DNA of 64,000 bases from Acidilobaceae archaeon (GTDB lineage: Archaea > Thermoproteota > Thermoprotei_A > Sulfolobales > Acidilobaceae), in the NCBI GenBank assembly GCA_038897215.1, contig JAWAWX010000001.1:320001-384000 (forward strand), written 5' to 3'. Positions 21,595 to 61,686 of the stretch are shown piece after piece; the stretch's first letter is position 1; each line of letters starts with the position of its first letter. The notes below the pieces were generated by a model. The model was not told the origin of the DNA. It ran no database searches and saw nothing but the letters and a program-made list of their open reading frames with translations. A program made the position numbers and the translations under genes.

Positions 21595-22384
21595 CGTCTA
21601 CACCCGGTCTCTGGATACTCTTGCCTTCGAGAAGAGGGACTCCCTTCATTCTAGTCGTGTAAGCGAATATCACTGAAGGCGTTTCCGATTGTAGCGCTCT
21701 ACTCAAAGCTTTATCTATGCTCCTCACATCGTGACCATCGCAGACCAGAACGTTCCAGCCCACAGCTCTCCAGACTAGAGGCATGTAGTGCTTGGGTTTC
21801 ACGCCATCGGTAGGCCCGTCGAGCTGATAGCCGTTATTGTCTATGACTACCACCAGGTTGTCTAGTCTTCTGTAAGCAGCGTGACTCATAGCCTCCCACA
21901 CTTCTCCCTCGTCTTGCTCTCCGTCGCCCATGACCACGAAGACTCTACCTCTTCCACCCCTCATCTTTATGGCTGTTGCCAGACCTACAGCAAAGCTGAA
22001 TCCAGAAGCTAGGCTTCCCGTAGATGCATCAACACCAGGTATCGTGATCTCCGGGTGCCCTTGGAGTACGCCATTGATATCGTGCATCTTGTAGAGCTCT
22101 TCTCGAGGGATTAGCCCCTGCTCGGCTAGCGCTACGTAGAGAGCTGGAGCAGCGTGACCTTTACTGAGTACTAGCCTATCGCGGTCTAGGCTACCCCCGT
22201 CTCTCCTCATGTACTTGAAGATTATCACTGTGAGTATCTCGATAACGCTGAGAGAAGAGCCTAGATGAATCGCCTGGTCTCTAAGGTATAGCTCGAGAAG
22301 CCTTCTCCTGATTCTCTTAGCTACTAGCTCGAGAAGCTTGGGGTCCGCTAGAGAGCTAGATATTGGCGGAATTCCATCCCCCAG
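21566..22384 (-). CDS. Transketolase, N-terminal subunit (start uncertain)
   Basis: DRLVLSKGHAAP, LQGHP, STGSL, GDGEQDEG..WEA; the conserved HLGSSLS lies upstream of the first canonical start (22228), so the feature is extended to an in-frame CTG at 22384. Confidence 0.9.
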   Translation of the reverse strand: MGDGIPPISSSLADPKLLELVAKRIRRRLLELYLRDQAIHLGSSLSVIEILTVIIFKYMRRDGGSLDRDRLVLSKGHAAPALYVALAEQGLIPREELYKMHDINGVLQGHPEITIPGVDASTGSLASGFSFAVGLATAIKMRGGRGRVFVVMGDGEQDEGEVWEAMSHAAYRRLDNLVVVIDNNGYQLDGPTDGVKPKHYMPLVWRAVGWNVLVCDGHDVRSIDKALSRALQSETPSVIFAYTTRMKGVPLLEGKSIQRPGVDVVREALLNA

Positions 22385-22703
22385 ACCCTCTATAGTGGGA
22401 GCACTTCAGCCTGCAGGTTAAATACTTTAATGGTTTCAGCGGACGTGCCGACTCTCTGACTACTCGTTTTCGAGCTTTCCCGGTCTCTCCGAGAGGCTTT
22501 GCTGAAATCGTGATAGAGGAGGGTTTATAGTGCCCTCTGACTCTCGTACAGCTCGCTGGCACACAGTCTATCGTCTCTCATCAAAGCCCTCTTGGGCGAA
22601 GGCTTGCGCGTAGGTCGAGTTCTCGAGAAACCCGTTTGCCGTGAGCTCTTTGCAGAGAAGATGGTCACGCCTTCTCTGAAGCGCGAGCATACTCTTCGGT
22701 CTC

Positions 22704-24119
22704 TCAGCCAGGTGCCTCTACGCCTTCTCTCCTGAGTATGCTCCTAGCCGCTATGACTCCCGTTGCTGCCGCTATATTCATGCCTCTAGAGAGCCCTGTG
22801 CCGTCTCCGGCTGCGAAGACGTTCTCTAGCGTTGTCTCTAGCTCTCTCGTCACCTTTGCTCTGACGCTGTAGAACTTTATCTCGGGAGCGTAGAGCAGAG
22901 TCTGTGGCGAAGCGAGACCGGGGATGATCTCGTCTAGTCTCTCTATAGCCTCCACTATATTGGCGACTACTCTATAGGGGTAGCCCATAGCTATATCGCC
23001 TGGAGTAACGGACTTGAGTGTAGGCTCGACCACGCTCCTCTCTATCCTAGCCCACGTGCTCCTCCTGCCCGCCACCAGGTCGCCGAATCTCTGCACTATT
23101 GGCTTTCCGCCCCCAAGCTTAGTCATTAGTCTCGATAAGCTCTTACCGTAGGCTATAGTGTCTTCGAGGGGGTCCGTGAGCCTTACTGTGACTAGTAGAG
23201 CGAAGTTCGTGTTCCTCGACTTGAGCGTAGCGAACTCCTCTCCGTTCACTCCCACAGTATCGTCTGGATAGCGCTCCTCTACTACGAACCCGTTGGGGTT
23301 AGTGCAGAAAGTCCTGACCTTGTCGTCGTAAGACCTGGTGTAGAGAACTATCTTGGGGTCTCTGAAGATCTTGGTTATAGGCTCCATCACGTACGATGGA
23401 ACCTCTACTCTAACCCCTATGTCTAGAGGGCCCGGCTCGACAGCTATCCCTCTTCTCCTGGCCAGCTCGGAGAACCACTCTGCTCCCACACGTCCGGGAG
23501 CGAGTATAACGTACCTAGCCTGGACCTCTCCTCTACTCGTCTTGATTCTATATGCTCCATTAAGCTTCTCGATGTCGACTGCTTGAGTGTACTCGTAGAT
23601 AGTGACTCCTCTGGCTTTGACGAACTCGAGCATATTAGCTACTACCTTCGGCATGATGTCAGAGCCTATGTGTCTCTGAGGAGTGGGGATGAACTTAGCG
23701 CCCGCTTTTGCTGCTAGTCTCTCGAGCTCTAGAGAGGCCTCCTTGGAGGGCGATATTATGTTGTTTGGAGCTCCGAAGAATGCCAGGACTTCATCTACAT
23801 ACCTAACTAACCCCTCGGCCTCCTCCCAGCTACCGACTAGCTTGTCTAGGTCTCCGCCCACGTCGGGTCTTAGGTTTAGAGCCCCACTACTCAGAGTCGC
23901 CGCGCCGCCTACTCCAGCCATTATGTTGCACGGCTTGCAGTTAGCGCACTCTCTATCTCTCGATAGCTTTCTCGGATTAAACATAGGGCAGAATCTGAGA
24001 GGGTTACCGCTACCCATCTCTATGACTGCTACTCTAAGCCTCCCATTAGACCATCTCGCTATCTCGTAGGATGCGAAGAGTCCGGCTATGCCTCCCCCGA
24101 TTACTGCAACATCGTACAC
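22704..24119 (-). CDS. Uncharacterised FAD-dependent oxidoreductase (COG2509-like)
   Basis: GGGIAG Rossmann motif, CP...CxxCxPC, RHIGSD, DIGVRVE, VRTFCTNP, YAPEIKFYS, AAGDG. Confidence 0.85.
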   Translation of the reverse strand: MYDVAVIGGGIAGLFASYEIARWSNGRLRVAVIEMGSGNPLRFCPMFNPRKLSRDRECANCKPCNIMAGVGGAATLSSGALNLRPDVGGDLDKLVGSWEEAEGLVRYVDEVLAFFGAPNNIISPSKEASLELERLAAKAGAKFIPTPQRHIGSDIMPKVVANMLEFVKARGVTIYEYTQAVDIEKLNGAYRIKTSRGEVQARYVILAPGRVGAEWFSELARRRGIAVEPGPLDIGVRVEVPSYVMEPITKIFRDPKIVLYTRSYDDKVRTFCTNPNGFVVEERYPDDTVGVNGEEFATLKSRNTNFALLVTVRLTDPLEDTIAYGKSLSRLMTKLGGGKPIVQRFGDLVAGRRSTWARIERSVVEPTLKSVTPGDIAMGYPYRVVANIVEAIERLDEIIPGLASPQTLLYAPEIKFYSVRAKVTRELETTLENVFAAGDGTGLSRGMNIAAATGVIAARSILRREGVEAPG

Positions 24120-24125
24120 ATCGAG

Positions 24126-25169
24126 TCACCCGAGGAGCCCCGTGTCTCTCCTCCGGTCTACTACGCACTCCACACTCTCCCCAGTCCCTAGTAGAGTAAC
24201 GGGGGTCCTCAAGGCGTTCTCTATGCTCTCAACCCACTCTCTAGCTCCTCTAGGCAGAGACTCCCACCTCCTAGCGCATCTAGCATCGGGGAATAGCGCG
24301 TCCAGCTTGGTGATAGCGATCTGTGTGGGAGAGTTTAGCATTACTGCTCTCTGCGCTAGCTTCAGGTTGAATAAGGCGACTCTCCTCCTCCTTCCAGTCA
24401 CAGAGCCGTACTCTACTAGACCGAGCTTCTCCGCGTCTTCTGGAGAGAGCTCTCCCTCTAAAGGACCGCCTCCTACTCGAGTCACGTACGACTTGAATAC
24501 CAGAATGACGTCTGTGACTCTAGTAGGCCCTACCCCCACTTCTGATAGCACTGCTGAGGCAGTAGTGTCTCTGCTCGTGACGTACGGGTATGTTCCGTGA
24601 TATAGGCTCAGGAAAGCTCCCTGAGTCCCCTCGACTAGAACGAGTTCTCCACGGTCTAGAGCTTCGTTAACAAGTAGAGGCACATCGCTCACATATGGAG
24701 AGAGCTCTGGGAAGTCTTTAGCCAGTCTAAGCCTTCGCAGAACCCTATCAGACATAGCGTACCCTACTCCCTGAAGAGTCGACCCTATAGCTCCAGCTAG
24801 CTCAGAGTCTCTCTTCTCGAGCTCGACATGCTTCTCCTCTATAACGCCTGTATTCATATCAACAAACATCCTATCCCTAACGCCAGTCTCTTCGACCTCC
24901 TTCAAGAACACATCGAGCCTGATCAGAGCACCGGGGGCCACAGCTAGAACCACCTTCTTGTTGATGAAGCTCGAGGGAACTACACGAAGTCTCCAAGTCC
25001 TCCCCTCGAAGACGACAGTATGGCCGGCGTTAACGGCTCCTGTTCTCACAGCTATAGCCGGGTTGTCTACGAGCCCTAGATACGCTGCTATCTTACCCTT
25101 ACCTTCGTCTCCGAAAAAGCCCCCGACGACTACTACTAGAGCCGTGCCTCCATCACCTCCAGGAAGCAC
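24126..25169 (-). CDS. purA: Adenylosuccinate synthetase (short archaeal type)
   Basis: GGFFGDEGKGK, NAGHT, EGTQG, GTYPYVTS, RVGGGP, VTGRRRR, ITKLD; true start may be ACG at 25145. Confidence 0.96.
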   Translation of the reverse strand: MLPGGDGGTALVVVVGGFFGDEGKGKIAAYLGLVDNPAIAVRTGAVNAGHTVVFEGRTWRLRVVPSSFINKKVVLAVAPGALIRLDVFLKEVEETGVRDRMFVDMNTGVIEEKHVELEKRDSELAGAIGSTLQGVGYAMSDRVLRRLRLAKDFPELSPYVSDVPLLVNEALDRGELVLVEGTQGAFLSLYHGTYPYVTSRDTTASAVLSEVGVGPTRVTDVILVFKSYVTRVGGGPLEGELSPEDAEKLGLVEYGSVTGRRRRVALFNLKLAQRAVMLNSPTQIAITKLDALFPDARCARRWESLPRGAREWVESIENALRTPVTLLGTGESVECVVDRRRDTGLLG

Positions 25170-25396
25170 TGCGTTAGAGCGCTAGAGAGACCATGCTTCT
25201 CGAGAATACTCGGTGTCAAGTAGGTTCCTTGAGTTGACTATAGCGCTTCTAGAGTTAATATGTACTCGGCAGAGCCTAGTTATCGTGGTCAAGCAGAGAT
25301 AGCGTCTATACCCGTAGCACTCTTGCGGTAACTCCGAGATATCTCGAGGAGCTTTAGACTACTGTGTAAAGACGTTTTGCGCTAATTTTTTAAATT

Positions 25397-25414
25397 TCTT
25401 TATAACTATAAAGA
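25397..25414. promoter_or_regulatory. Perfect 8-2-8 palindrome in the purA/nuo divergent region, candidate operator
   Basis: TCTTTATA-AC-TATAAAGA, directly after TTTTTAAA. Confidence 0.4.
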
Positions 25415-25554
25415 TTATCCGATAACGATATGGAGACACAACGACTATAGCATACTTGTAGTTATTGCCTGGCTCTCGGCAATAGTCTAAGCCTACATTC
25501 GGCTAGAATTTTTTAAGTGGGTCTTTAGTGGTATCCCTTTCTCGGAGACTGCTT

Positions 25555-25941
25555 GTGACGAGTTTTCTAGAGTTGCTATCGAGAGACGTGGTCTCTCTCG
25601 TAGTAGCCCCCCTCATGCTCACAGCCTTCTTGGGAGCTCTCGTGCTCGCGTTAGCGCTCCTCTCGAGGAGGCCGGGGAGCTCTCTAGTCTCAGCTGAGAG
25701 GTACGAGGCAGGTAATCCTCCATGGGGCTCTGCTAGAAGGCCTCTCGAGATGCAGTACGTAGCCTACCTGGTGCTCTTCGCTACCATCGAGCCGGTCTTG
25801 GTCGTAACGGGCTTTCTAGCGCTTGCTGGACTCATTGCCGCTCCTCTCTTCATCGCCTTCCTACTCCTTCTCTCGATACCAGTCTTAGTGTATGGAGCCT
25901 ACGAGGCTAGAAGAGTCTCTGTGGAGGTTGCTCAGCAGTGA
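25555..25941 (+). CDS. nuoA: Complex I-like subunit A
   Basis: Three TM helices, RYEAGNPP loop, LFATIE; TATA at ~25510 favours GTG 25555 over 25528. Confidence 0.85.
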   Translation: MTSFLELLSRDVVSLVVAPLMLTAFLGALVLALALLSRRPGSSLVSAERYEAGNPPWGSARRPLEMQYVAYLVLFATIEPVLVVTGFLALAGLIAAPLFIAFLLLLSIPVLVYGAYEARRVSVEVAQQ

Positions 25942-26489
25942 TCTACGTTGGAGTTCTTGAAGCAGCTTATCGGAGAGCTCTCGAGATCCTCTCCGGCAAG
26001 CTGAGAATCGGCCAGGTAGCCGACTGGTTCACAGCCTACAGTCTCTGGCCAGTGCACCTGGTTACGGGCTGTTGTGGAGCCGAGTTCGCTGCAGCCTACG
26101 GCCCTCTGGTTGACTGCGAGCAGTACGGCTCCCTGCCCTGGGTGTCCCCCAGGCAGACTAACTTGATAGTGATAGAGGGGACTGTCACCAGGAAGATGGC
26201 GTGCGCACTCAAGATCACATACGAGCAGATGCCCCCGCCTAAGTACGTGATAGCCATGGGGGCGTGCGCTATAGACTACGGGGTCTTCAGAGGCAGCTAC
26301 AACATGGTGAAGCCCTGGGAGGTAGTCCCCGTAGACATCTTCGTGCCAGGATGCCCGCCTACGCCCGAAGCTCTCGCTAGAGCCATAGTGGAGCTACAGA
26401 GGAAGATAAAGAGGGGGGAGGTCGCGGCGAAGACGGGAGCGCTACTGAGTGAAGCTAAGGCAGACCCGTGCAGATGGTGGTCTCCCTGA
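25938..26489 (+). CDS. nuoB: Complex I-like subunit B
   Basis: TGCCGAE, SPRQ, MGACA, VPGCPP (N2 cluster ligands). Confidence 0.95.
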   Translation: MIYVGVLEAAYRRALEILSGKLRIGQVADWFTAYSLWPVHLVTGCCGAEFAAAYGPLVDCEQYGSLPWVSPRQTNLIVIEGTVTRKMACALKITYEQMPPPKYVIAMGACAIDYGVFRGSYNMVKPWEVVPVDIFVPGCPPTPEALARAIVELQRKIKRGEVAAKTGALLSEAKADPCRWWSP

Positions 26490-42702: not shown

Positions 42703-43923
42703 GTGCGCGTATTGGCTAGAGTGCTCGCTACTGCTCTGCTAGCAGTTGTAGCATTGACTCTGCTAGCCTCCCTCTCTCTCGTAGCCTCGGCTGGGTCGAG
42801 GGTTTCTCTCTTGTACTCTATCGAGGGCAACGTGCTGAGAGTCTCTAACCCCTTCTACTCTCTGGAGCTCAACCTGGAGAACGGGCTCTCTCCAGTCTCC
42901 TGGATAGCGCTCGACGCTAGAGCAGAGTGGGGTAGCGTGGCGGGCTTCACTCTAGACGTTTGCTCGGATAAGGGGCTCGAGAGCGGAGCTCCAGCTCTCG
43001 GTAGCGTGGCGTGGACTCACAGCGTTCTCTCCGCTACCAGAGACGTTCTCGTAGTCTCTCTAAGACCCGCCGCAGCGGATACCTGTGCTTCTCCTCTCTC
43101 GGTGACACTGGTAGCTAGCTTCTACTCCTGGCTCCCCTACGTAGACGTGCTTCTAGTAGTCTCGAATGAAGGCAATGAGACTGTCAGACTTGCAGGTTCT
43201 CAGGGAGCTCCAGCTGTGGCAGTGAGCCTGCCCGTGGCTCCCGGCTACAGAGCTGTAGCCGTCTCTCTAGACCGCGTTGGCCTAGCTGTCCACGAGGAGC
43301 CCGGAGATTACCTGAAGATAGCTCCGAAAACAGCCGCCATAGCTTTACTCGCTGACGGCTCTCTGAGAGCCGTCTACGGCGTCTCCGACGCGAGCCTAGG
43401 AGTATACGCTGTTCTCTCCTTCAGCCTAGAGGAGGGCCGGGCTTTGCTCAAAGCAAGCCTGCCGGCTCGCTCTATCGCCTCAGGGGAGCACGCTGTCTTC
43501 AGCTTCAAGCTCGCTCTAGCTTCTAGCGATGCTATCGCCGCATCTCTAGCAGGCTTCGCTCCAGCCTACGCTACTCTAGAATCCGGGGGCTTCGAGACGC
43601 TCCTGAGCATACTCCCTCTGAAGAGGTATCTTGAAGAGAGCTCTCGCCTAGTGGAAGAGCTGAGAGGGGAGATTAGAGAACTCGAGGCCAAGGTGGGAGA
43701 ACTCGAGGCTAAGATAGAGGAGCTCGGGGAGCAGGCCGCGTTCTGGGAGAGCGAGGTGAAGATAAGAGAGGCTACGATAAGCGAGCTGAGAGCCAGGATA
43801 GACGAGCAGAACCTGATAGTCCTAGCTACTATGGCTCTAGGGCTGGCTCTAGGGCTAGCTGGGGGAGTCGTAGCCTACAAGGCTAGAGTAGAGCGCGCTA
43901 GAGGAGTCCCGAGGAGGAGGTGA
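42703..43923 (+). CDS. Surface protein: signal peptide, beta-rich ectodomain, coiled coil, C-terminal TM anchor
   Basis: N-terminal hydrophobic signal, ~65-aa heptad segment (LVEELRGEIRELEAKVGELEAKIEEL), TM helix and basic tail. Confidence 0.75.
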   Translation: MRVLARVLATALLAVVALTLLASLSLVASAGSRVSLLYSIEGNVLRVSNPFYSLELNLENGLSPVSWIALDARAEWGSVAGFTLDVCSDKGLESGAPALGSVAWTHSVLSATRDVLVVSLRPAAADTCASPLSVTLVASFYSWLPYVDVLLVVSNEGNETVRLAGSQGAPAVAVSLPVAPGYRAVAVSLDRVGLAVHEEPGDYLKIAPKTAAIALLADGSLRAVYGVSDASLGVYAVLSFSLEEGRALLKASLPARSIASGEHAVFSFKLALASSDAIAASLAGFAPAYATLESGGFETLLSILPLKRYLEESSRLVEELRGEIRELEAKVGELEAKIEELGEQAAFWESEVKIREATISELRARIDEQNLIVLATMALGLALGLAGGVVAYKARVERARGVPRRR

Positions 43924-44953
43924 TGGCTTTCGAGCCTGAAGAGATACCCCTTTCCTAGCCGACCCTGAGAGGTATGCTTCAGCGAGGCTCTCATCGGCTA
44001 GAGCCTTCGAGGAGCTAGTGTGCTCAGACGAGGTCCTCCTCTCTAAGAGCGTGGAGAGAATCAGAGCCGCTAGAGAGGGCTGGCTCCAGAGCTTCGTCGA
44101 GAAGCTCGACTTAGACTCTCAAGTCTACACGTTCTGGATAGCTCTCCTAGCTCTGAGAGAAGCGGGGAGCGTTAGGCTCCTGGATGAGTTCATCGAGAGA
44201 GAGCTGGAGCTAGCTAGGAGGCACCTAGACTCGGAGGAAGACCGGGACGTATTGAGGATAGCTGAGAGCCTAGGGCTTAGAGTAAAGCCCGCTGAGCTAA
44301 GAGTAGCAGTCTCGAGGAGAGAGAGGGGGGAGCTTCTCTACAAGGTCTTCGGCTACGCCATCCCACTCAGAGACTTTCTGAGAGTCTCCTCCAAGTCGAG
44401 AGCTGGAGAGCTGAGACTCGTGAACAACCCTGTGAGAGACGGGGTAGTCTACCTAGACGGAGAGACTCTGAGACTACTCGTCTCCGAGGCTTTCCGAGCC
44501 CGGCTAGCTGAGAAGCTGAGAGAGATAGAGGCTCCCGAGAGCCCCGCTTTCAGAGAGCTAGCTGAGAAGCTGAGAGAGATAGAGGCGCTGGCGCTCAGCG
44601 GTCTCGATGAGCTCTCCCTGCCTCAGTGTATCAGAGAACTCGCTACCAAGGCGTCGAAAGAGAGCTTGAGCGACCTGGAGGCTCACACGATAGTGTCATT
44701 CCTGAAGGCTTCCGGAGCTCCGAGAGACGCTGTAGCGGTCATGCTGAAGAAGCTAGGCTTAGCTGACGAGCGTGTAGCCGAGACGATAGCGAGAGCTCTC
44801 GAGGAGATAGAGGCTCCAGGGCCTCTGAGATGCGAAGAGCTCAGAAAGCGTGGTGTCTGCGACTGCGATAGAGACCTCACTCTAGAGTATCGAGAGCGCA
44901 GAAGCCGGGGTTCTGGGAGAGCTCGCGAGCCAGAGCATCGAGCCTCCTCCTAG
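43923..44953 (+). CDS. priL: DNA primase large subunit (5' end frame-disrupted; intact frame from ~43940, first canonical start 44018)
   Basis: PFLAD N-terminus, LVNNPVRDGVVYL, LPQCI, C..L...G.C.C Fe-S motif. Confidence 0.82.
44503..44586 (+). repeat. 30-bp exact direct repeat inside priL
   Basis: GCTAGCTGAGAAGCTGAGAGAGATAGAGGC at 44503-44532 and 44557-44586, encoding LAEKLREIEA twice. Confidence 0.9.
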
Positions 44954-45500
44954 ACTTCTCTAGTAGAGCGTTCGACTCCGAGACCAAGAGCTCTAGAGCC
45001 TCCTCGCTGACGAGGTCTACTCCTCTAAGCCTCAGGGGGGCTATCATCTGAACACTACTCATCACCTCGAAGGCGTAGCCTAGCCTAGGGTGCTTGGAGA
45101 CGACTCCGCTGTGCTTGAACCCGTGTCTTCTAGCCGCGCTGAGAGCGTAGAAAGCGCAGGAGAGCCTAAGTGTCCTGAAGTGGACTATGGGGCCGCTGAC
45201 TTTGAGCCAGAGGCTCTCGAAGCCTCTCCTCAGGACTCTAGAGACCTCCTCCACAGTGATCGGGTCGTGGGTCTTGTAGACTACTCTGGCTCTCCTCCTG
45301 CTCCAGTGCTCCTCCCCCTCGACCACTGTTATCCTGCCGATACAGCTACTAGTAGTGAGGAGTAGAGGCGGCTTGTTGAGCGCCTCTATCAACGCCTCTG
45401 CTCCCGGGTCTAGGTACCCTACGATCCTCTCGTCTAGAAGCTCTCCGAGCACTCTCCTCTTGTACTCCAGCCACTCCTCAACTCCTAGCTTCTGCTTCAG
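44877..45500 (-). CDS. taw3: tRNA wyosine-derivative methyltransferase Taw3/Tyw3
   Basis: GYLD, TTSSCIGRI, K.H, PIVH, GFKHSG; start extended to in-frame CTG 45500 (canonical GTG is at 45452). Confidence 0.9.
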   Translation of the reverse strand: MKQKLGVEEWLEYKRRVLGELLDERIVGYLDPGAEALIEALNKPPLLLTTSSCIGRITVVEGEEHWSRRRARVVYKTHDPITVEEVSRVLRRGFESLWLKVSGPIVHFRTLRLSCAFYALSAARRHGFKHSGVVSKHPRLGYAFEVMSSVQMIAPLRLRGVDLVSEEALELLVSESNALLEKSRRRLDALARELSQNPGFCALDTLE

Positions 45501-46311
45501 TGTCTACCACCACCTGAGCCAGCCTGGGCCCGACCTTCCTGACTGTTCTAGAGCGCAGAAGCCTAGCTCTCCAGCCGAGCTCCTCGAGCCTGGCTGAGAC
45601 GAGCTTCTCTGCTTCAGCCAAGTGCTCCCCCCTCTTCCCCATAGGCACGTGGAGGTAGAAGTGCACCCAGCCTCTGTCTCCTCTTAGAGCTTTGAGAGCG
45701 TAGGGAGCATACTCTAGAGCTAGGTCTGGGAGCGGCATCAGGACTCTGTCAGCTACCCCTACCAGCTTCTCCTCGACTACTCTAGCCGCGTCTCCTAGGT
45801 GTGCTACCACTCTATCGGAGACCTTGTTGAGTTCTATGTTCTCGAGCATGAGCTTGTAGGCGTGCTCGTTTATGTCTATACTGTGGACTAGCCTGGCTTG
45901 AGCTCTCTTGGCTATTATTATGGAGAACGTCCCTACTCCAGCGAACATGTTGACAACGACCTCCCCGGGCTCTACCAGAGAGGCTACTCGAGCGTGCTCG
46001 AATGAGAGCCTCGGGGTTATGAAGACTCTGGCTATGTCTACCTTGAATATGCAGCCGTGCTCTCTGTACGTTGTGACTGTTCTCTCCTCCCCAGCTAGGT
46101 GGACGAGCCTCCTGGTCTTGAAGGGGGGCTCAGTGGGGCTTACTGCTAGCCAGACCGACTTGATGTAGGGGAGGCTCTTCATCAGCTCTAAAGCTAGAGC
46201 TCTGTAGTCTTCTATCGATAGGCTCGAGGAGAAAGGCTTCTTGAGTACCGCTATGTCCCCTACTACTTCTAGAGTGCTCCAGACCTCTCCCGCCTTGTCT
46301 GCTCCGAGCAC
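45478..46311 (-). CDS. Trm5/Taw2 (Met-10+) family tRNA methyltransferase
   Basis: VVGDIA, YREHGC.FKVD...VF.TPRL..E, MFAGVG.F, DIN..A, DRVLMPLP. Confidence 0.9.
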   Translation of the reverse strand: MLGADKAGEVWSTLEVVGDIAVLKKPFSSSLSIEDYRALALELMKSLPYIKSVWLAVSPTEPPFKTRRLVHLAGEERTVTTYREHGCIFKVDIARVFITPRLSFEHARVASLVEPGEVVVNMFAGVGTFSIIIAKRAQARLVHSIDINEHAYKLMLENIELNKVSDRVVAHLGDAARVVEEKLVGVADRVLMPLPDLALEYAPYALKALRGDRGWVHFYLHVPMGKRGEHLAEAEKLVSARLEELGWRARLLRSRTVRKVGPRLAQVVVDTEAEARS

Positions 46312-46355
46312 TCTCTCAGCTATAGCCTTGACGATCCGGGCCGCTCTCGAGCACC

Positions 46356-46412
46356 CCCGTCAGCTGGGATGGATTGCATCACCGCTCATTATTGGAGTCA
46401 CTCATCACCACT
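46356..46412 (-). ncRNA. Box C/D methylation-guide sRNA
   Basis: Minus strand: C GTGATGA, 12-nt guide GTGACTCCAATA, D' ATGA, C' GTGATGC, 12-nt guide AATCCATCCCAG, D CTGA; canonical archaeal spacing, intergenic. Confidence 0.85.
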
Positions 46413-46449
46413 GTCTGGTAGCCTGCTCGGAGGCTTTTCTGCTGTATCT

Positions 46450-53643: not shown

Positions 53644-53648
53644 GAATA

Positions 53649-53675
53649 GTGCACCGTTTCTTTATACAGGTGCAC
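53649..53675. promoter_or_regulatory. Dyad operator GTGCACC-N13-GGTGCAC between the TATA box and the fmdE start
   Basis: Perfect 7-bp inverted repeat; minus-strand CTTAAAT at 53682-53688. Confidence 0.6.
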
Positions 53676-53736
53676 CAACAGATTTAAGCATTACGGTAGC
53701 GAGTCGCGCAACGTTCTAGCGCCTCATCAGCGCGTT

Positions 53737-54738: not shown

Positions 54739-54860
54739 CTCGGAGCCCTAGGAGAGCGCTGAGTCTATAGAGCTAATCAAGAACTCGCTAGGAGCGCTCC
54801 AGCAAGCCTCTCTTCGTATTTGAGGAGGTTTTGCGAATCTATATCAATAAACAGATAGAC

Positions 54861-54896
54861 TATTAAATAGTATTTAATAAATGGAAAATTTTAAAA
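54861..54896 (+). promoter_or_regulatory. 9-1-9 palindrome immediately upstream of the BRE/TATA of the psr-like operon
   Basis: TATTAAATA-G-TATTTAATA (54861-54879), then GAAAA-TTTTAAAA (54884-54896). Confidence 0.55.
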
Positions 54897-54937
54897 GAGT
54901 GGTCCTAGAATCTAGTTATGGCTGTGGGTGACGAGCC

Positions 54938-57484
54938 ATTGCTGTAAAACTCTCGAGAAGAGATTTCGTTAAGCTTTCTGCTCTCGCTGCCGCGCTAATG
55001 TCTATACCTCTTGGCTACAAGACCGTCAGGAAGACCGATGAGGCGTCGCTAGCCGGAGCCGGTATCGGTGGCATAAAGTTCGTTAAGACATACTGTAATA
55101 TGTGTGGAGCTCTCTGCGGCATACAGGTAGCCGTGAAAGACGGGAAACCTCTATTCGTGCTCCCCATAGATGACCACCCGCAGCGGGGTCTCTGCGGCAG
55201 GTCTGCTACCACTCCATGGCTCTGGAATCACCCGCTTAGAGTCAGGAAGCCTCTGAAGAGAGTCGGGGAGAGGGGCGAGGGCAGATTCCAGGAGATCTCC
55301 TGGGAGCAGGCTCTAGACGAGATAGCCGCCAAGCTTAGAGAGATAGCTGAGAAGTACGGCCCCCGAGCCATAGCCTTCACCTGGCACGATGTATGGAGCT
55401 GGCACGTCGGCCTATTCCAATACGGTCTCGGCACCCCTAGCTTCACGAACCACGTCGGAACCTGCCATACGAGCGGGACTGTGGCTAGAGGGGCTGTACT
55501 AGCAGCTGGAGGGCCTGCAAGCGTCGACCCGGATCTGACCAACGCTAGCTACGTCCTCCTGGTTGGCAGAGCCTACTCTACTGCTAACATGGGCCATGTT
55601 AACTGGCTCAGGTCTAGTGACAAGGTTAGGATTGTCTACGTCGGGCCCAGGATGGCTGAGATTGCTTTCGGGGAGGTCGAGTGGGTTCCTATCAAGCCTG
55701 CTACCGAAGTCGTCTTCGTGCTGAGTCTTATCAATGTGATCATAGAGGAGGGTCTTTACGACGCTGAGTTCCTGAAGAGGTATACTAACGCTCCGTTCCT
55801 CATCAAGCCCGACGGCAGGCCTCTCGTTGAGGCGGATGTAGTCGCGGGCGGTAGAACAGGAGTATATCTAGTATTCGATGCTAGAACAGGGAGACTCGAA
55901 GACCACACGAGAGCAGCAGACCCACACCTAACGTACACAGGTAGAGTAACACTAGCAGACGGAAGAGAGATAGAGGTAACAACAGCATTCAACCTACTTA
56001 GAGAAAGAGCAGCCAAATACCCGCCAGAAGAAGCGGAGAAGATAACAGGAGCACCGGCAACAACCATAAGAAGAATAGCGAGAGAATTCGCGCTATACAG
56101 AGGAGTAGCAGACGACACCTGGTACGTTACGTGGAACGGAGAACCGGACTTCTACGCTGTGATGGCTATACTGATACTCAACACTATCGTGGGGAGCTTA
56201 GAGAGGCCAGGCGGGCTAGGCTGGATGGAGACTAGGAGATTCCCAGCCATAGGGTCTGTTGTAACCGTGGGCGGGAAGAGGTACTGGAGACCTGTATGGG
56301 CTGAGACGATCCCAGAGGCTCACCCAGGCCTGCCTGAAGAGCTGTGGGGCAGCGCTGGCGAGACGAGGATCGATGTGAGGAAGTATAGGAGGACTGCTGC
56401 TACTTTCGACGCGATACTAGACGCTATAATCAAAGACGACCCCTACCCTGTCAGAGCCCTGATAGCGATCGGAAGCGACCCGCTCATGAGAGACATGGAT
56501 ACAGAGAAGGTTAAGGAGGCTTACAGGAAGCTCGAGCTACTAGTAGTTGTGGACGTTCTTCTCAAAGACTCGGGAATGTATGCGGACTACGTGCTTCCAG
56601 ACACCACGTTCCTAGAGAGAGACGAGATAGCGTCCAACAAATGGACTCTAGCCCCGGTAGTCCAGAAGCAGACGAAGGCCGTAGACCCGCCGCCTGGCTG
56701 CGAGGCTAGAGACTGGATCTGGGCGTTCATGGAGATAGTGAGGAGAGCCTGGCCGGAGAAGGCTAGAGCTCTAGGCTGGAAGGAGGAGTACAGAGACTAC
56801 GAGACCTACAAGAGAGACTTCGACGAGAAGCTGAAGGAGGCCATGGTGATAGCCCTAGCTAGAAGCTGGGCTCCGGTGCTCAGAGTCCCCGAGGCGGAGC
56901 TGAGAGAGCGGATCAAGAGAGAGCTCGACGAGAAAGGCTACATAGTGTTCCAGCCCAAGGTATACAACCCGGCCAGGCTCACTGCTCTAGGGACTCCTAG
57001 CAGGAAGGCTGAGATATACTCGCTGAGGAATCTAGCCGACGGGCTAGACCCGCTCCCCGACTTGAAGCCCCCGGCTTACACTGTGCCCAGAGGCGGTGAC
57101 GAGTTCTACCTAGTCAACGGCAAGAATGCGCTCGTAAGCGTCCACGCTACGCTAATGCTGCCGATGAGATGGCTTCATGACCCGAGAGTATGGATGAACC
57201 CGAAGGATGCCAAGAGACTAGGGATAAGAGACGGGGACTTGATAGAGCTCGAGGCGATAGACACTGGCAGGAAGGCTAGAGCGAGAGTCAGAGTGACTGA
57301 TAGAGTGATGCCGGGAGTCTTGTTCGTCTTCAGCCAGTCATTCGGTAGAATCATAAAGCACATAGAAGGCTATGAGCATCTCGCAGAGGGCATCAACCCG
57401 CACACATTAATCAGAGCGTACGCGATGCCGATAGTGGGAGGAGGGGCGACGAACTGCAGCGTCAGAGTCAGGAAGGTGAGCTGA
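54938..57484 (+). CDS. Mo/W-bisPGD oxidoreductase catalytic subunit, polysulfide/thiosulfate reductase (PsrA/PhsA/SreA) type, with Tat signal
   Basis: SRRDFVK Tat motif upstream of ATG 54998; CNMC...C...C FS0 cluster; HVGTC metal-ligand loop; ADYVLPD..FLER; MNP.DA...G. Confidence 0.88.
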   Translation: MAVKLSRRDFVKLSALAAALMSIPLGYKTVRKTDEASLAGAGIGGIKFVKTYCNMCGALCGIQVAVKDGKPLFVLPIDDHPQRGLCGRSATTPWLWNHPLRVRKPLKRVGERGEGRFQEISWEQALDEIAAKLREIAEKYGPRAIAFTWHDVWSWHVGLFQYGLGTPSFTNHVGTCHTSGTVARGAVLAAGGPASVDPDLTNASYVLLVGRAYSTANMGHVNWLRSSDKVRIVYVGPRMAEIAFGEVEWVPIKPATEVVFVLSLINVIIEEGLYDAEFLKRYTNAPFLIKPDGRPLVEADVVAGGRTGVYLVFDARTGRLEDHTRAADPHLTYTGRVTLADGREIEVTTAFNLLRERAAKYPPEEAEKITGAPATTIRRIAREFALYRGVADDTWYVTWNGEPDFYAVMAILILNTIVGSLERPGGLGWMETRRFPAIGSVVTVGGKRYWRPVWAETIPEAHPGLPEELWGSAGETRIDVRKYRRTAATFDAILDAIIKDDPYPVRALIAIGSDPLMRDMDTEKVKEAYRKLELLVVVDVLLKDSGMYADYVLPDTTFLERDEIASNKWTLAPVVQKQTKAVDPPPGCEARDWIWAFMEIVRRAWPEKARALGWKEEYRDYETYKRDFDEKLKEAMVIALARSWAPVLRVPEAELRERIKRELDEKGYIVFQPKVYNPARLTALGTPSRKAEIYSLRNLADGLDPLPDLKPPAYTVPRGGDEFYLVNGKNALVSVHATLMLPMRWLHDPRVWMNPKDAKRLGIRDGDLIELEAIDTGRKARARVRVTDRVMPGVLFVFSQSFGRIIKHIEGYEHLAEGINPHTLIRAYAMPIVGGGATNCSVRVRKVS

Positions 57485-57499
57485 GAGAGGTGAGCCCCC

Positions 57500-58069
57500 G
57501 TGGCGAGGCTCGCGTACTTATGGGATGAGAGGCTCTGCATCGCCTGCATGGCATGCGTGGTAGCGTGCACAGCGAACTACCCGGAGCTGAGAGAAGACCC
57601 CAACCCGAACCCGTACTGGAGGTGGATGGCGAGCAACATAAGAGTGGAGATCAGGGAGTTCGGGAGGCCGAGACTGAGACTCGTCTCATGCCAGCACTGC
57701 GAGAACCCGCCTTGCGTCACTGTGTGTCCCACTTTCGCTAGCTATATCGATAAGAAGACCGGGCTAGTTAAGTTCGATAAGAGCAAGTGTCTCGGATGCA
57801 AACACTGCGTGATAGCGTGTCCCTACGGAGCCAGGTGGGTTGGCAAAGACCTCCTGCCGCACAAGTGTATGGGTGAGCTCTGCGAAAGCAGAGTAGAAGC
57901 AGGGCTACAGCCTCTCTGCGTCAGCGTCTGCCCAGCCAACGCTAGAGACTTCGGCGACATAGACGACCCAGAGAGCAGCATATCTAAGAAGCTGAGAGCT
58001 CTGAGAACAGAGAGAATGCTGGAGGAGTACAGGACCGAGCCTAAGTACTTCGTGGTGACTGGTGGGTAG
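57500..58069 (+). CDS. 4Fe-4S electron-transfer subunit (PsrB/NrfC-like)
   Basis: CIACMACVVAC, CQHCENPPCVTVCP, CLGCKHCVIACPY, KC...C...P.CVSVCP. Confidence 0.93.
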   Translation: MARLAYLWDERLCIACMACVVACTANYPELREDPNPNPYWRWMASNIRVEIREFGRPRLRLVSCQHCENPPCVTVCPTFASYIDKKTGLVKFDKSKCLGCKHCVIACPYGARWVGKDLLPHKCMGELCESRVEAGLQPLCVSVCPANARDFGDIDDPESSISKKLRALRTERMLEEYRTEPKYFVVTGG

Positions 58070-58071
58070 AG

Positions 58072-59211
58072 ATGGTTGGCGCGAGAGTGACTGTAGCTGT
58101 ATCGGTAGCTCTCATCGTGGTAGGAGGCCTGCTAGCTCTCTACGGCTTCTTGACTAAGCAGGTGCCAAGCATAACCTGGGCTCTTCTAGTCCCTGCATAC
58201 GTGTTCTTCGGGCTCATGGCTGGAGGCTCTAGCATAGTCAACAGCCTCTACACAGTCTTCGGCTACAAGGGGCCCAGAGAGGAGCTGGAGAGGATAATAG
58301 TCTACGGCGTCGTGTTCTCGCTAGCCTCGCTGATAGCGTCGTTCCTAGCTATCGCGCTTGAGGTTTCACAGCCTTGGAACACTATCTACATCCTGCTATC
58401 TCTCAACCCGGAGTCTAGGATAGCCTGGATGGTGATCATCTACTCGATATACCTCGTCTTCCTGGTGGTAGAGCTAGCATACTTCCTGCTACACTCCGTC
58501 TCCCCGTCTAGAGTCAAGGTGTCTAAGGCTGTAGAGTTCGCTTTAGGAGTCTTAGTGCTGGTCGTCACGATAGCTGCCTACACGAACCTAGCGGGGATCT
58601 TCGGTAGTACCGCCACGATCCACATGTGGCACGGAGCCCACCTAGCAGCACTATTCATCCTGTGGGCTATAGCACTTGGAGCAGCCGGTCAGGGACTCTA
58701 CGTGCTGATCCTGAAGCGCGCTGACAGAGAGCTTCAGAGCTTTGCCGCAAGCTTCTACGGGAGGATCATGACTCTAGGCCTTCTAGCCACTGCCGCTGTA
58801 GTGTTCTGGATGGCTCTCCTAGCCGGCTACGGGCCTGCTGCTAGAGAGTGGGAAGTCATGCTTAATGGAGCCTACTCAGCTCACTTCTGGATAGGCTTCG
58901 TCATAGCAGGCCTAGCCGCCCCCATAGTGCTATCTATAGCCTCGACCACGACTAGAAACATCTTGTACCAGGCAGCCGCCTCGATCCTAGCCCTTCTCGG
59001 AGGCTTCATCGGCATGTACACCATAGTCGTAGCTCCTCAGACAGCGCGCCTCACAGTCTTCAGAGACTACGAGGTGATAGAGTTCGCACCACACGCCGAC
59101 GAGTACTTCGTCCTAGCTGGAACCATCCTGATCTGGATAGGGATACTGAGTCTGGGAGCTATCGTAGTCAAGAGCACATACGAGCGAGCACACCAACAAG
59201 CCCACAGCTAG
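58072..59211 (+). CDS. NrfD/PsrC family membrane anchor
   Basis: W..LV..Y.FF, SRIAW, about 10 TM helices; third gene of the CISM triad. Confidence 0.88.
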   Translation: MVGARVTVAVSVALIVVGGLLALYGFLTKQVPSITWALLVPAYVFFGLMAGGSSIVNSLYTVFGYKGPREELERIIVYGVVFSLASLIASFLAIALEVSQPWNTIYILLSLNPESRIAWMVIIYSIYLVFLVVELAYFLLHSVSPSRVKVSKAVEFALGVLVLVVTIAAYTNLAGIFGSTATIHMWHGAHLAALFILWAIALGAAGQGLYVLILKRADRELQSFAASFYGRIMTLGLLATAAVVFWMALLAGYGPAAREWEVMLNGAYSAHFWIGFVIAGLAAPIVLSIASTTTRNILYQAAASILALLGGFIGMYTIVVAPQTARLTVFRDYEVIEFAPHADEYFVLAGTILIWIGILSLGAIVVKSTYERAHQQAHS

Positions 59212-59229
59212 AACTTTCCCGCTTCTATC

Positions 59230-59250
59230 CCTCCTTCTTTTTCCCCTCCC
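59230..59250 (+). terminator. Pyrimidine/oligo-T tract, putative archaeal terminator
   Basis: CCTCCTTCTTTTTCCCCTCCC about 20 nt after the psrC-like stop. Confidence 0.5.
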
Positions 59251-59337
59251 CTCCTCGCTTCTCTCGCGCTGAGCTCTCTAGAGGCTCCTCATTTAAGCTC
59301 TCGCGCTTCAAGGATGCTCTCCGGGTGCTTTCAGCCA

Positions 59338-60090
59338 GTGAGGGTCCTCTTGATCTCTGACGTGCACGGTAACTATGACGCTCTGAGAGCTGTTCTCGAA
59401 GCCTCTCCGCCTCACGACGACGTCTGGATCTTGGGAGACCTAGTCGACTACGGGCCTGAGCCCGATGCTGTAGTCGACGAGGTGAGAAGCCTAAAGCCAG
59501 GCGTCGCCGTCAGAGGGAATCACGACCACGCTGCTGCCTACGGTGTCGACTGTGGGTGTGGAGACGAGGTGCGGTGGCTCAGCGTCTACACTAGAGAGGC
59601 TGTGACCGCGAGGCTCTTAGACGAGGGGCACAGAGCGTGGCTTAGGTCTCTCAGGATCGTGGAGAAGCGTGAAGCTGGGAGATTCCAGGTCACGGTGGTC
59701 CACGGGAGCCCGAGCAACCCTCTATACGGCTACCTGAAGCCGGGGATGAGCTTAGAGGAGCTCAGAGCGTCTCTAGCTCAGAGACCCGGGCTGAGGCTCA
59801 GAGGGGGCTCGGTGGAGCCCGTCTCCGGGCTCTTCGCGGTCGGTCACGCTCACGTAGCGTACGAGCTTAGAGTCGACGAGGCCAGAGTCTTGAACCCGGG
59901 TAGTGTAGGGCAGCCTAGAGACGGAGACCCGAGAGCCTCCTTCGGAGTCCTCGACTTGGAGACCGGGAGGTTCGAGATTCGCAGAGTCGAGTACGACGTG
60001 GCTAGAGTAGTCTCTAAGCTGAGAGCTCTAGGCTTGAGGGAGGACGCGTTGGAGAAGCTGGCTTCAATCCTGCTCACTGGGAGAGCGTAG
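59338..60090 (+). CDS. Calcineurin-like metallophosphoesterase
   Basis: ISDVHGN, LGDLVDYG, RGNHD, VHGSP, GHAH, NPGSVGQPRDG; alternative start ATG 59314. Confidence 0.92.
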   Translation: MRVLLISDVHGNYDALRAVLEASPPHDDVWILGDLVDYGPEPDAVVDEVRSLKPGVAVRGNHDHAAAYGVDCGCGDEVRWLSVYTREAVTARLLDEGHRAWLRSLRIVEKREAGRFQVTVVHGSPSNPLYGYLKPGMSLEELRASLAQRPGLRLRGGSVEPVSGLFAVGHAHVAYELRVDEARVLNPGSVGQPRDGDPRASFGVLDLETGRFEIRRVEYDVARVVSKLRALGLREDALEKLASILLTGRA

Positions 60091-60108
60091 CTCTGGGGAG
60101 CTCTGTGG

Positions 60109-61137
60109 CTAGAGCTCGAGAATGCTGACCTCCGAGACCCCGGCTTCGACTAGCTCGGGGCTAGCGCTAACAGGCGCGAGCACTACCGCCTTCCCCTTCC
60201 TCTCGTCAACTCTAACTAAGAGGCCCGGGTGGGGAGACTTCTTCACGTAAACTGCCGCTATGAGCCCTGCTCCTGGCCTGGGCCTCTGGTCTCCTAGGAA
60301 TACCACGGAGTCCAGAGGCACGGAGTAGCGCCTAGCGCCCGCCAGCTTACTGGCTATTAGCCTCTCTCTATGCAGCCTCCTCTCCTCGCTCGTCTTAGCC
60401 GAGCGAGCTAGAGGCTTGAGGCTCGCTACCTCGAGCCCTCTGCTCTCGAAGACCGCGAGCTTCTCTCTATCGAGCCCGAGAGCCACCACTAGCTCTACTC
60501 CGGCCTCGACCGCTATCTCCGCCTTAGCCTGAAGCCCTCTCTCCTCGACCCACCCGTCGGTGTCTATCACTAGAGGGGGCGGGCTCTGGGAGAGCTCTAG
60601 AGAGCATCGCTTGTACCTCTCTAGCATAGCGCTAGGAGTGAAGGAGCCGACGAAGCAGGAGCGCTCTACAGTAAACGAGGCCGTGGACCCGGGTACAACC
60701 GGGGGGTTAACGGAGGCTAGCGAGGCGAACCCCGGGCAGTAGACCTCATTCTGCCCGACGTCTATAGTGAGGAGCTCGGGTCTCGCTCCTGAAGCTGCCG
60801 CCAGCCCGGCTACTAGAGACGCTAGAGTGCTCTTACCGGAGTCCACGGGGCCCACTATCATCGACTTCCTTCTAGCAGCCTCTCTAGCCACAGAGTAAGC
60901 CTCCTCTATCTCCCCCGAGGAGAGCTCTACTAGAGCGGAGCCGGGCGAGCCGGACACCTGGATCCTTGCGTTCTCTCCCCTCAAGAGGACTGCTCTAGCT
61001 CTAGGGACCACTAGCCTGAAGCCTGCTCCCACGGGGAACCCCATTGCTTCAACTAGTCCTCCAGCGACCACCACTACCGCTGGGCCTCTGACTGCCAGGA
61101 AGCCGTCTAGGCTGATCTCTCTAGTGTATAGCTCCAC
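60109..61137 (-). CDS. Clp1/Grc3 family polynucleotide 5'-kinase
   Basis: VGPVDSGKSTL, IDVGQ, FVGS.TP, VIDTDGWV, EERR..RE lid. Confidence 0.85.
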   Translation of the reverse strand: MELYTREISLDGFLAVRGPAVVVVAGGLVEAMGFPVGAGFRLVVPRARAVLLRGENARIQVSGSPGSALVELSSGEIEEAYSVAREAARRKSMIVGPVDSGKSTLASLVAGLAAASGARPELLTIDVGQNEVYCPGFASLASVNPPVVPGSTASFTVERSCFVGSFTPSAMLERYKRCSLELSQSPPPLVIDTDGWVEERGLQAKAEIAVEAGVELVVALGLDREKLAVFESRGLEVASLKPLARSAKTSEERRLHRERLIASKLAGARRYSVPLDSVVFLGDQRPRPGAGLIAAVYVKKSPHPGLLVRVDERKGKAVVLAPVSASPELVEAGVSEVSILEL

Positions 61138-61200
61138 CTCCCCGGCCCTCCGCCGCTCTAGGGGAGAGAGCTCTCCTTAAAGAGAGCTCTCGCTGCGGCC

Positions 61201-61686
61201 CTAGACTAGGATCACGTTGAGCTCCGGCATCGCTCTCTTCAGCTCTCTAGCCACAGCCTCCGAGTCTTCGTAGACAGCCTGGATCTCGTACTTGCGCGCC
61301 AGCCTCCTGATAGCCTCCAGCTTGACTACCCACTCGCTCCTACGGTCTCCACTCCTCCTAAAAACAACCTCAGCTACAGCGCTCAGCAAGCCGGCTTCCT
61401 CTAGCTGCTTTAGCGTGATGCTCCTCATAGACTCCGGCCTGCCTGTGACCACGACTACAGCGTAGCCTCGCGAAGCGTAGTCGAGAGCTAGCCTCACGTA
61501 CTCGAGTCTAGGCTCGTCGAGGTAGGCGAACCTCTCGCTCAGAAAGCACTCCCAGAACCTGGCTCTAGGAGCTCCCCGGAGAGACTCGATGCTAGCACCG
61601 CCAACCTCGCTCAAGCACGCCTCAAGTCTTCTCCTCGAGTCCACCAAGACACCATCGACGTCGAAGACTACCGCTCTAGCTCTCAG
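61201..61686 (-). CDS. HAD-superfamily phosphatase resembling the T4 Pnkp phosphatase domain
   Basis: AVVFDVDGVL (upstream of TTG 61647, hence CTG 61686 proposed), VVVTGR, RR.GD.R....VK, YED. Confidence 0.8.
   Translation of the reverse strand: MRARAVVFDVDGVLVDSRRRLEACLSEVGGASIESLRGAPRARFWECFLSERFAYLDEPRLEYVRLALDYASRGYAVVVVTGRPESMRSITLKQLEEAGLLSAVAEVVFRRSGDRRSEWVVKLEAIRRLARKYEIQAVYEDSEAVARELKRAMPELNVILV

Follow-up and report, generated by a model that had tools for sequence, protein, structure and literature searches.

The 64,000-nt stretch of Acidilobaceae DNA analysed here (the window, bases 320001-384000 of genome G000, one contig of 1.16 Mb with a completeness estimate of 89.7%) carries several genes, among them tkt-N, priL, taw3, a psrA-like gene and a gene for a HAD-family phosphatase, whose conserved N termini begin upstream of any ATG, GTG or TTG. 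Our comparison with a congeneric genome, G001 (1.08 Mb compared), leads us to propose that initiation at near-cognate codons about 7 nt behind a Shine-Dalgarno (SD) motif is probably a habit of this genus. The proposal builds on direct observations, namely the sequence anatomy of these starts, their conservation and turnover between the two species, their statistical excess, and a priL reading frame that is uninterrupted in all other relatives compared. From these we infer that the initiator tRNA, with its ordinary CAU anticodon, pairs with near-cognate codons and that the proteins are made at full length.

Proposed start codons behind the Shine-Dalgarno motif

The two genomes differ in GC content (54% in G000 vs 45% in G001), and their proteins have a median identity of about 70%. 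Stop-to-stop open reading frames (ORFs) were paired as reciprocal best hits, giving 1073 pairs, and the 1051 with a coding-type substitution pattern were subjected to a per-gene likelihood test of whether the aligned segment 5' of the first ATG, GTG or TTG evolves like coding sequence, gene bodies differing at rates of 0.23, 0.15 and 0.57 at codon positions 1, 2 and 3. This test replaced a raw count of alignments that extend 5' of the first canonical start (191/1073), because that count was mostly noise from untranslated regions and antisense matches with flat codon-position differences. Coding-type conservation 5' of every ATG, GTG and TTG was found in 16 G000 genes at a log-likelihood ratio >3, tkt, priL and the HAD gene among them, and in 27 at the looser cut of >1.5. 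The upstream-conserved genes also include RidA, HypA, tgtA, a radical-SAM enzyme and an endonuclease-IV-like gene, in which 43-76 codons of the conserved protein come before the first canonical one.

The 16S rRNA of G000 ends in ...GGAUCACCUCC, also written ...GGATCACCTCC(A), so that the SD motif is GGAGGTGATCC. At 534 starts with a canonical codon in the same column in both species, GGTG peaks 6-8 nt 5' of the start, and the codon is GTG in 198, TTG in 181 and ATG, the rarest, in 155. Genes that lack a canonical start share a layout in which GGTG, the complement of the 16S 3' end, is followed after about 7 nt by CTG, ACG, ATA, TTA or TCG, or else by ATT or ATC. At this GGTG+7 position the G001 counterpart has the identical codon, another near-cognate or a canonical one, as the following genes illustrate:

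Radical-SAM enzyme: CTG in G000, CTG in G001
RidA: CTG in G000, CTG in G001; first canonical codon 76 codons later
Gene at genome 626351: ACG in G000, ACG in G001
Gene at genome 858033: TTA in G000, TTA in G001
Rpp30: ATA in G000, ATA in G001
HypA: CTG in G000, TTG in G001
Gene at genome 92002: CTG in G000, TTG in G001
Gene at genome 498079: ACG in G000, TTG in G001
Gene at genome 754931: TCG in G000, TTG in G001
Aldo-keto reductase: CTG in G000, ACG in G001
Gene at genome 974214: ATC in G000, ATA in G001

A genome-wide count of the codon behind the SD motif bears this out. Systematic listing of GGTG followed by a near-cognate codon gave 33 G000 genes (CTG 11, TTA 4, ACG 4, TCG 3, two each of ATA, ATT, GCG, CTA and ATC, and GTA 1), whereas random sets of ten other codons gave 10.7±2.9, with a maximum of 20 in 2000 sets. 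The G001 codon at these sites is the same in 15 cases, canonical in 6 and another near-cognate in 6. For G001 itself the count was 31 genes vs 6.5±2.3, a value that none of the 2000 random sets reached. An ortholog-free count, which scored long ORFs for RGGTG plus 6-8 nt in their first 25 codons, was made in both species and in two control genomes of the same order:

G000: 16 observed, 6.1 expected, p=3.5e-4
G001: 16 observed, 4.7 expected, p=1e-5
G016 (400 kb, other family): 5 observed, 2.4 expected, not significant
G013 (400 kb, other family): 6 observed, 8.6 expected, not significant

The excess amounts to 20-25 genes per genome, or about a tenth of the SD-led starts.

Four genes of the window show this anatomy in detail:

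24126..25160, minus strand: purA; SD GGAGGTGA at 25160-25153, then 7 nt to ACG 25145; alternative GTG 25169
54927..57484, plus strand: psrA-like molybdopterin oxidoreductase; GGTG at 54927-54930, ATT 54938 7 nt after GGTG
44877..45514, minus strand: taw3 (TYW3); GGTGGTGG at 45514-45507, CTG 45500, first canonical codon GTG 45452
61201..61698, minus strand: HAD-family phosphatase; SD-like GGGGA at 61698-61694, CTG 61686 7 nt after GCGGGGA

In psrA the twin-arginine (Tat) motif SRRDFVK lies 5' of ATG 54998. The G001 gene reads ATG TCC ATT AAG TTA AGC AGA AGA (MSIKLSRRDF), and its ATG, four codons before LSRR, stands in the column of the G000 ATT, both codons lying 7 nt behind (G/A)GTGA. Reassignment of a stop codon was considered for psrA and rejected, as it would give a 27-residue n-region that the G001 ATG does not support. 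In taw3 the TYW3 profile matches (from its position 3) from residue 15, the first canonical GTG being residue 18; the second GGTG of GGTGGTGG is 7 nt ahead of CTG 45500, and G001 has an ATG directly before its own CTG, which is likewise at GGTG+7. The HAD gene has its first canonical codon (TTG 61647) at residue 43, inside the DVDGVL motif, so that the catalytic DVDG lies 5' of it, while the Hydrolase profile begins at residue 33. Here both species have CTT CTG A, with the G001 CTG 6 nt behind AGGGGA; the SD (GGGGA) is weaker than GGTG, and the segment 5' of the TTG has substitutions of 3/2/8 by codon position.

The ACG of purA lies 8 nt after GGTG, vs 7 nt for its aligned counterpart in G001 (MPLTVVVGG), which is an ATG; four other relatives have ATG or TTG at this point of the N terminus (MPLT/MPLN/MTLS...VVGG). 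We take ACG 25145 to be the likelier start, and GTG 25169 would be the start with a distinctly smaller probability. The placement of ACG 25145 behind GGAGGTGA in the original prediction thus stands, but the strict lack of a canonical start that it implied for purA does not, since GTG 25169 is in frame; taken alone, the purA case is suggestive rather than compelling.

Across the window, tkt, HAD, psrA, priL and taw3 have no in-frame canonical start before their conserved N terminus, purA being the exception, so that the original prediction of N termini 5' of canonical starts holds for these five genes, positions included. Its idea of relaxed start-codon selection is likewise supported by normal SD spacing, by alignment with the starts of relatives and by an enrichment present in both species and not in the controls. 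GGTG is separated from the codon by 7 nt in psrA, taw3 and priL (TCG) and by 8 nt in purA, within the norm of 6-8 nt; the purA and psrA codons align with ATG, the HAD CTG with a CTG, and the taw3 CTG with a CTG preceded by ATG. We picture the 30S subunit as docking on the SD, the complement of the 16S 3' end, and initiating about 7 nt downstream even where the codon only nearly matches AUG, GUG or UUG. The proposed starts would then be AUU 54938 for psrA, CUG 61686 for HAD, CUG 45500 for taw3 and ACG 25145 for purA, with GUG 25169 as a fallback. The accepted codons would comprise any first base, a freedom that GUG and UUG already show, an A-C mismatch at position 2 (NCG) or 3 (NUA), and additionally AUU and AUC.

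Several simpler explanations have to be set against this. Sequencing or assembly errors, whether substitutions at the starts or indels near the 5' ends, might be suspected given that both genomes are metagenome-type assemblies; one frame break in G000 lies at a T7 run. Two species with 54% and 45% GC and about 70% identity nevertheless share the sites in tkt, priL, HAD, the radical-SAM enzyme, RidA and others, in places with a different near-cognate in each (such as CTG/ACG, TCG/ATC and ATC/ATA). Substitutions, not homopolymer indels, account for the differences, and the excess is specific to near-cognate codons. Gene bodies in the window, as had been stated beforehand, show no detectable frame break in comparison with G001. 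Indel-prone assembly, the original prediction's mundane alternative, is rejected in view of the same anatomy and the coding-type substitutions in G001, and we give errors as the source of the pattern next to no credence. The break at the T7 run (genome 730214; CTTTTTTTAC, genome ~730195-730225, plus strand) is the single homopolymer-type break examined, and the gene concerned is intact in G001.

Translation could also begin at the next downstream ATG, GTG or TTG, or the genes could be decaying pseudogenes in a reduced genome, with upstream conservation that is not translated. The small genome (1.16 Mb, completeness estimate 89.7%) and the apparent frame breaks relative to the other genome in about 7 (G000) and about 12 (G001) genes, none of them in the window, would fit such decay; most gene bodies are intact. 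However, downstream starts would remove the DxD nucleophile of HAD, HLGSSLS of tkt, the Tat signal of psrA, the MHE N terminus of HypA and two thirds of RidA; the upstream segments are coding-like, with third-position changes dominant, and the SD precedes the near-cognate codon and not the downstream canonical one. We therefore regard this explanation as improbable.

RNA editing would offer yet another route, as C-to-U changes would turn ACG, UCG, GCG and CUG into AUG, UUG, GUG and UUG, and A-to-I changes would make AUA and UUA read as AUG and UUG. Deamination could in this way convert nearly all classes (CTG, ACG, TCG, GCG, ATA and TTA), and ACG-to-AUG editing is established in plant organelles. 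Editing cannot rescue the ATT and ATC starts (psrA; genome 908191 and 1140844), though, and no site motif besides the SD was seen. We know of no start-restoring mRNA editing in archaea, which also counts against this route, and we think it very improbable.

Near-cognate initiation behind an SD is in our view the best explanation, yet several points weigh against it. The genus is represented by two genomes only, G001 being a fragmented metagenome-assembled genome, the controls cover 400 kb per genome only, and about one third of the 33 listed genes is expected by chance. In purA the in-frame GTG 25169, 8 codons upstream, requires no special codon, and in tkt none of the near-cognate codons of the main frame is well spaced from the SD. 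Nor do aIF1, in a comparison of 14 genomes, or the initiator tRNA show anything that explains lowered fidelity. To our knowledge, UUA, UCG, GCG and CUA, which differ from AUG at two positions, are not used efficiently by any tested system. Finally, a LeuA/CimA-like gene (genome 780765-782324, plus strand) is explained neither by near-cognate initiation nor by simple coupling: both species have an in-frame GTG GTG GTN TAG directly before the conserved N terminus (K S ... V E V L D T T L R D G), no canonical start follows for 39-50 codons, and the GGTG+6 codon is AAA.

As to the machinery, the initiator tRNA shows nothing unusual: its anticodon is CAU, and it has the A1:U72 pair together with three G:C pairs. 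The suggestion that aIF1 might carry fidelity-altering changes was not borne out, as aIF1 is present and keeps all positions that are invariant among the 14 genomes; its two unusual residues (LAVGG, GDQR) occur in the genus of G007 too.

Some observations in the vicinity of these genes deserve mention. In G001 (contig C1, ~194200) psrA and a paralogous molybdopterin oxidoreductase switch frame at the same residue (~181), and the G000 copies of psrA and the paralogue (orthologue of window 54932-57481; G000_426) are intact; the G001 change could be a recurrent error, pseudogenisation or recoding. A trm5/TYW2-like methyltransferase gene (window 45478-46359, minus strand) has in both species GCG at GGTG+7 and conserved coding-like sequence (R I V K/R ...) 5' of the place of the first GTG in G000; its start may be GCG or ATC/ATA. 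Directly 5' of this gene (window ~46360-46415, minus strand), both species have a conserved element with the shape of a C/D box: GTGATGA, 12 nt, a TGAG-like D' box, GGTGATG(C/A), about 12 nt and CTGA. The element is nearly identical in G001, ends at the stop preceding the SD of the trm5/taw2-like gene, and contains an ATG that explains a spurious 20-codon ORF; it had no Rfam match at gathering threshold, and an Rfam search of window 20000-64000 returned tRNA-Val only. Stop codon usage also differs markedly between the congeners (TAG 55%, TGA 32% and TAA 13% in G000, about equal use of all three in G001), a contrast that parallels their GC contents.

The two frames of priL

The gene for the DNA primase large subunit appears to need a change of frame in addition to an unusual start. 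Its parts are as follows:

43916..43968, plus strand: 5' part of priL; SD GGAGGTGA at 43916-43923, near-cognate TCG 43930, frame running to TGA 43966
43948-43954, plus strand: putative +1 shift site CCC TTT C, required to reach the main frame
43940..44950, plus strand: main frame of priL, opening directly after a TGA; first canonical codon at residue 27

The main frame matches Pfam DNA_primase_lrg and has conserved residues 5' of every ATG, GTG and TTG. In alignments with the PDB chains 5OF3_B and 1ZT2_B, residue 24 of the frame is the first to be matched and pairs with chain residue 28; ahead of the matching point S. solfataricus PriL has 27 residues as against 23 in the G000 main frame. The upstream part of the main frame has substitutions of 3/6/13 by codon position, and its coding pattern starts at the Asp codon (GAC/GAT) of a shared DPE motif. 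The residues before it are found in the frame that lags the main ORF by one base, where a segment encoding MSLKRYPF starts exactly 7 nt after GGTG. The codon at SD+7 is TCG in G000 (43930) and ATC in G001, and the next five codons have synonymous differences only (AGC/AGT, AAG/AAA) in a protein that is 58% identical overall between the two species.

In 10 relatives of other genera and 6 metagenome loci, the motif ...(K/R)YP(F/Y)(L/I)... is encoded in one frame with the rest of priL. The G007 gene reads ATG AGC CTT AGG AAA TAT CCT TTC CTA GTA GAT CCT, which is MSLRKYPFLVDP without interruption, and MSLKRYPF joined to LADPERY... matches MSLRKYPFLVDP... of G007 and 15 other loci. Both parts show the marks of purifying selection. 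Compared with TAT CCT TTC CTA in G007, G000 and G001 share one extra base (TAC CCC TTT C CTA), and the shift site, ATACCCCTTTCC, is identical in both.

These comparisons suggest that ribosomes initiate at UCG 43930 in the MSLKRYPF frame and slip +1 at CCC_UUU_C (43948-43954) to yield MSLKRYPF-LADPERY... The slip could occur as CCC re-pairs as CCU or UUU as UUC, and genes for tRNAPro(GGG) and tRNAPhe(GAA) are present. Of the usual stimulators none was seen: there is no SD within 3-6 nt of the shift site, the A-site codon would be UUU or CCU and no stop, and a 76-nt downstream fold scores z=-1.5 in G000 and +0.3 in G001, with no structure conserved. Two metagenome scans by priL for more members of the genus yielded none in the first and 6 distant loci, all unshifted, in the second. 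On balance we favour an obligatory +1 frameshift in priL, with some reservation, the remaining probability falling to a truncated PriL made through some form of re-initiation. The shift looks like a fixed, "corrective" one rather than a regulatory one. The original prediction was right that priL is affected, but the -1 shift proposed there has the opposite direction to the one favoured here, which would be +1 and start from a different frame.

The tkt-N leader ORF and the question of coupling

The gene for the N-terminal subunit of transketolase departs from the layout described above, as the codon in SD-led position is an out-of-frame ATG that opens a short leader ORF:

21566..22405, minus strand: tkt-N, stop-to-stop frame; first canonical codon GTG 22228, residue 60
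22348..22377, minus strand: leader mini-ORF ATG GAA TTC ... TAG (MEFRQYLAL*), +1 frame, 9 codons, SD-led

There is no ATG, GTG or TTG in the main frame before GTG 22228, and HLGSSLS lies 5' of that codon. Pfam Transketolase_N matches from residue 43 and DXP_synthase_N from residue 23 of the stop-to-stop frame, and over the 50 codons 5' of the first canonical start G000 and G001 differ at 11, 7 and 26 sites of codon positions 1, 2 and 3; a second count, over 48 aligned codons, gave 10/7/24. The two species share an identical block of 22 nt with the out-of-frame ATG in it, and G001 has no canonical start for 53 codons. In both species GAGG (22390-22387 in G000) plus 9-10 nt, equivalent to GGTG+7/8, points to this ATG (22377), and the leader stop overlaps main-frame CTA 22351 as CTAG.

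The leader ORF is present in G001 and, by an order-wide search, in 23 loci of four other families, with GGTG 5-9 nt before ATG GAA TT(C/T) in 22 of the 23. Leaders elsewhere have 5-12 codons (MEFQW*, MEFQYQ*, MEFRSQW*, MSFQNQK* and others), and synonymous changes (GAA/GAG, TTC/TTT) keep M-E-F. In the seven loci of family f5 the leader TGA overlaps a main ATG GTG A or GTG A, and in one of these genomes, G016, a main-frame stop lies directly upstream; in family f3 the main frame has no canonical start within the region viewed; in family f13 the upstream ATG is kept in frame in all 8 loci (MEKGGSDGIPIS...). We regard the leader ORF as a candidate for a conserved translational control element in the Sulfolobales-type order.

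Several routes into the main frame are conceivable. The frame reads ATA GAG GGT CTG GGG GAT GGA..., or (M)EGLGDGIPP, and this stretch and the f13 extension are homologous, ATA 22393 standing where f13 has its ATG; against this start, the corresponding ATA in G001 is one base out of frame. Entry might occur at one of the near-cognates AUA 22393, AUU 22372 and AUA 22363, or by re-initiation at CUA 22351. CTG 22384, put forward in the original prediction, is in frame, but G001 does not keep it, and no more than 2 nt separate it from the SD. Stop reassignment (TGA or TAG read as sense) was rejected for tkt, as a TAA lies 4 codons further up with no start after it.

The closest Transketolase-N homologues (64-66% identity; loci L120-L125) belong to another family, f7, none of 13 genomes of the window's own family in the order-wide sample matches Transketolase-N at E <= 1e-40, and in an earlier set of relatives family members other than G001 match it weakly (<=44% identity). 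This suggests that tkt-N was laterally acquired or was lost in the family.

The tkt leader also bears on an alternative in which coupling or recoding is general, a short +1-frame ATG ORF being translated first and followed by a -1 event or by re-initiation at NUA/NUG. All four mini-ORFs named in the original prediction exist in the +1 frame (tkt 22377-22348, 9 codons; purA, 5; priL from 43923, 11; psrA, 9), the tkt leader is SD-led and conserved as just described, and the f5 overlaps and the f3 frame that lacks a canonical start would suit coupling. Moreover, all UUA and AUA candidates genome-wide follow a genuine upstream ORF of 40-511 codons, the stop of which overlaps with them in 4 nt (UUAG, AUAG, AUAA), so that re-initiation after termination may help that subclass. 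Most CUG and ACG cases, by contrast, have no overlapping upstream ORF. The mini-ORFs of purA and psrA are absent from G001, which has a plain ATG there, and the priL one is different. The purA and priL ATGs stand 1 nt after GGTG and form the tail of an extended SD (GGAGGTGAT-G), and the psrA ATG has no SD. Base-by-base reading found no X_XXY_YYZ heptamer in the overlaps of tkt (22377-22348), purA, psrA and priL. The overlap of a mini-ORF stop with NTA, and the shared -1 shift, were discarded as evidence, because a +1-frame ORF must end on a main-frame NTA or NTG and both features are geometrically automatic. Systematic coupling to upstream ORFs or -1 recoding, as originally envisaged, is thus not supported as a rule, and we hold it to be an improbable general explanation.

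Comparison with known systems

SD-led near-cognate starts are known from bacteria, where E. coli infC and pcnB use AUU and where, by N-terminal proteomics, Deinococcus dnaA uses AUC, rpsL uses CUG and two more genes behave alike (PMC2830850); Deinococcus is the nearest precedent for such unusual usage. The cases described here resemble them in that CUG, AUU, AUC or AUA stands behind an SD in conserved housekeeping genes, is kept among close relatives and is missed by gene finders. They differ in scale, as the bacterial cases amount to two to four genes per genome and are often autoregulatory, whereas the excess here is about 20-25 genes or about one in ten SD-led starts. They differ also in that an archaeon has aIF1/aIF2 and not IF3, and in that the codons here include NCG and NUA forms two positions off AUG. 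Archaeal reviews list AUG, GUG and UUG starts only, and S. solfataricus aIF1 discriminates against AUU (PMC4705826, PMC7531240). The genus of G000 and G001 shares the machinery of the reviewed archaea (mRNAs both SD-led and leaderless, aIF1, and the A1:U72 and three G:C pairs in the initiator tRNA), but it appears to use CUG, ACG, AUU and AUA starts, none of which is named for those archaea, with some regularity. In the literature searched we found no report of near-cognate starts at such a scale in archaea.

If our reading is correct, gene finders limited to ATG, GTG and TTG cut short or overlook a few per cent of the proteins encoded in this lineage, and since such annotation cuts catalytic residues off some enzymes, metabolic reconstructions of such metagenome-assembled genomes are biased. 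The genus would represent a natural archaeal system in which selection under the control of aIF1/aIF2 is markedly looser than in Sulfolobus or Haloferax, and the determinants of start fidelity, common to archaea and eukaryotes, could be tested by comparing near relatives. That the genus combines a heritable and selected relaxation of start choice, by which a small percentage of all genes, some of them essential, would begin at codons that no archaeal system is known to use, with an obligatory +1 shift in priL and a tkt leader ORF conserved across families is a more tentative proposition, whose chances we put somewhat below even.

Termination-reinitiation coupling at ATGA and TGATG overlaps occurs in archaea and bacteria (Huber et al. 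2019, PMC6728339). The UUAG, AUAG and AUAA cases, and possibly the tkt leader (CUAG), share with it the 4-nt overlap of stop and start and an SD inside the upstream ORF. In those systems, however, translation restarts at AUG, GUG or UUG after a full-length gene, whereas here the codon is NUA, and the upstream cistron of tkt is a leader of 9-11 codons.

Programmed +1 frameshifts are represented by bacterial prfB (CUU_UGA_C), by the CCC_UGA site of a Listeria phage and by shift-prone tRNAPro at CCC_N (PMC5009743). The putative priL shift is like these in that one protein is encoded in two frames, that a P-site CCC or UUU can re-pair +1 (as CCU or UUC) and that the site is kept in both species; it is unlike them in that the A site has neither a stop nor a demonstrably rare codon, that no SD lies 3 nt upstream and that no downstream structure is conserved. 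It lies 8 codons into an essential replication gene and, if real, would be the first obligatory +1 frameshift in a cellular archaeal gene. The only documented frameshift in an archaeal cellular gene is the -1 event of S. solfataricus fucA1 (PMC8211752; also PMC5009743), to which priL would add a cellular +1 case.

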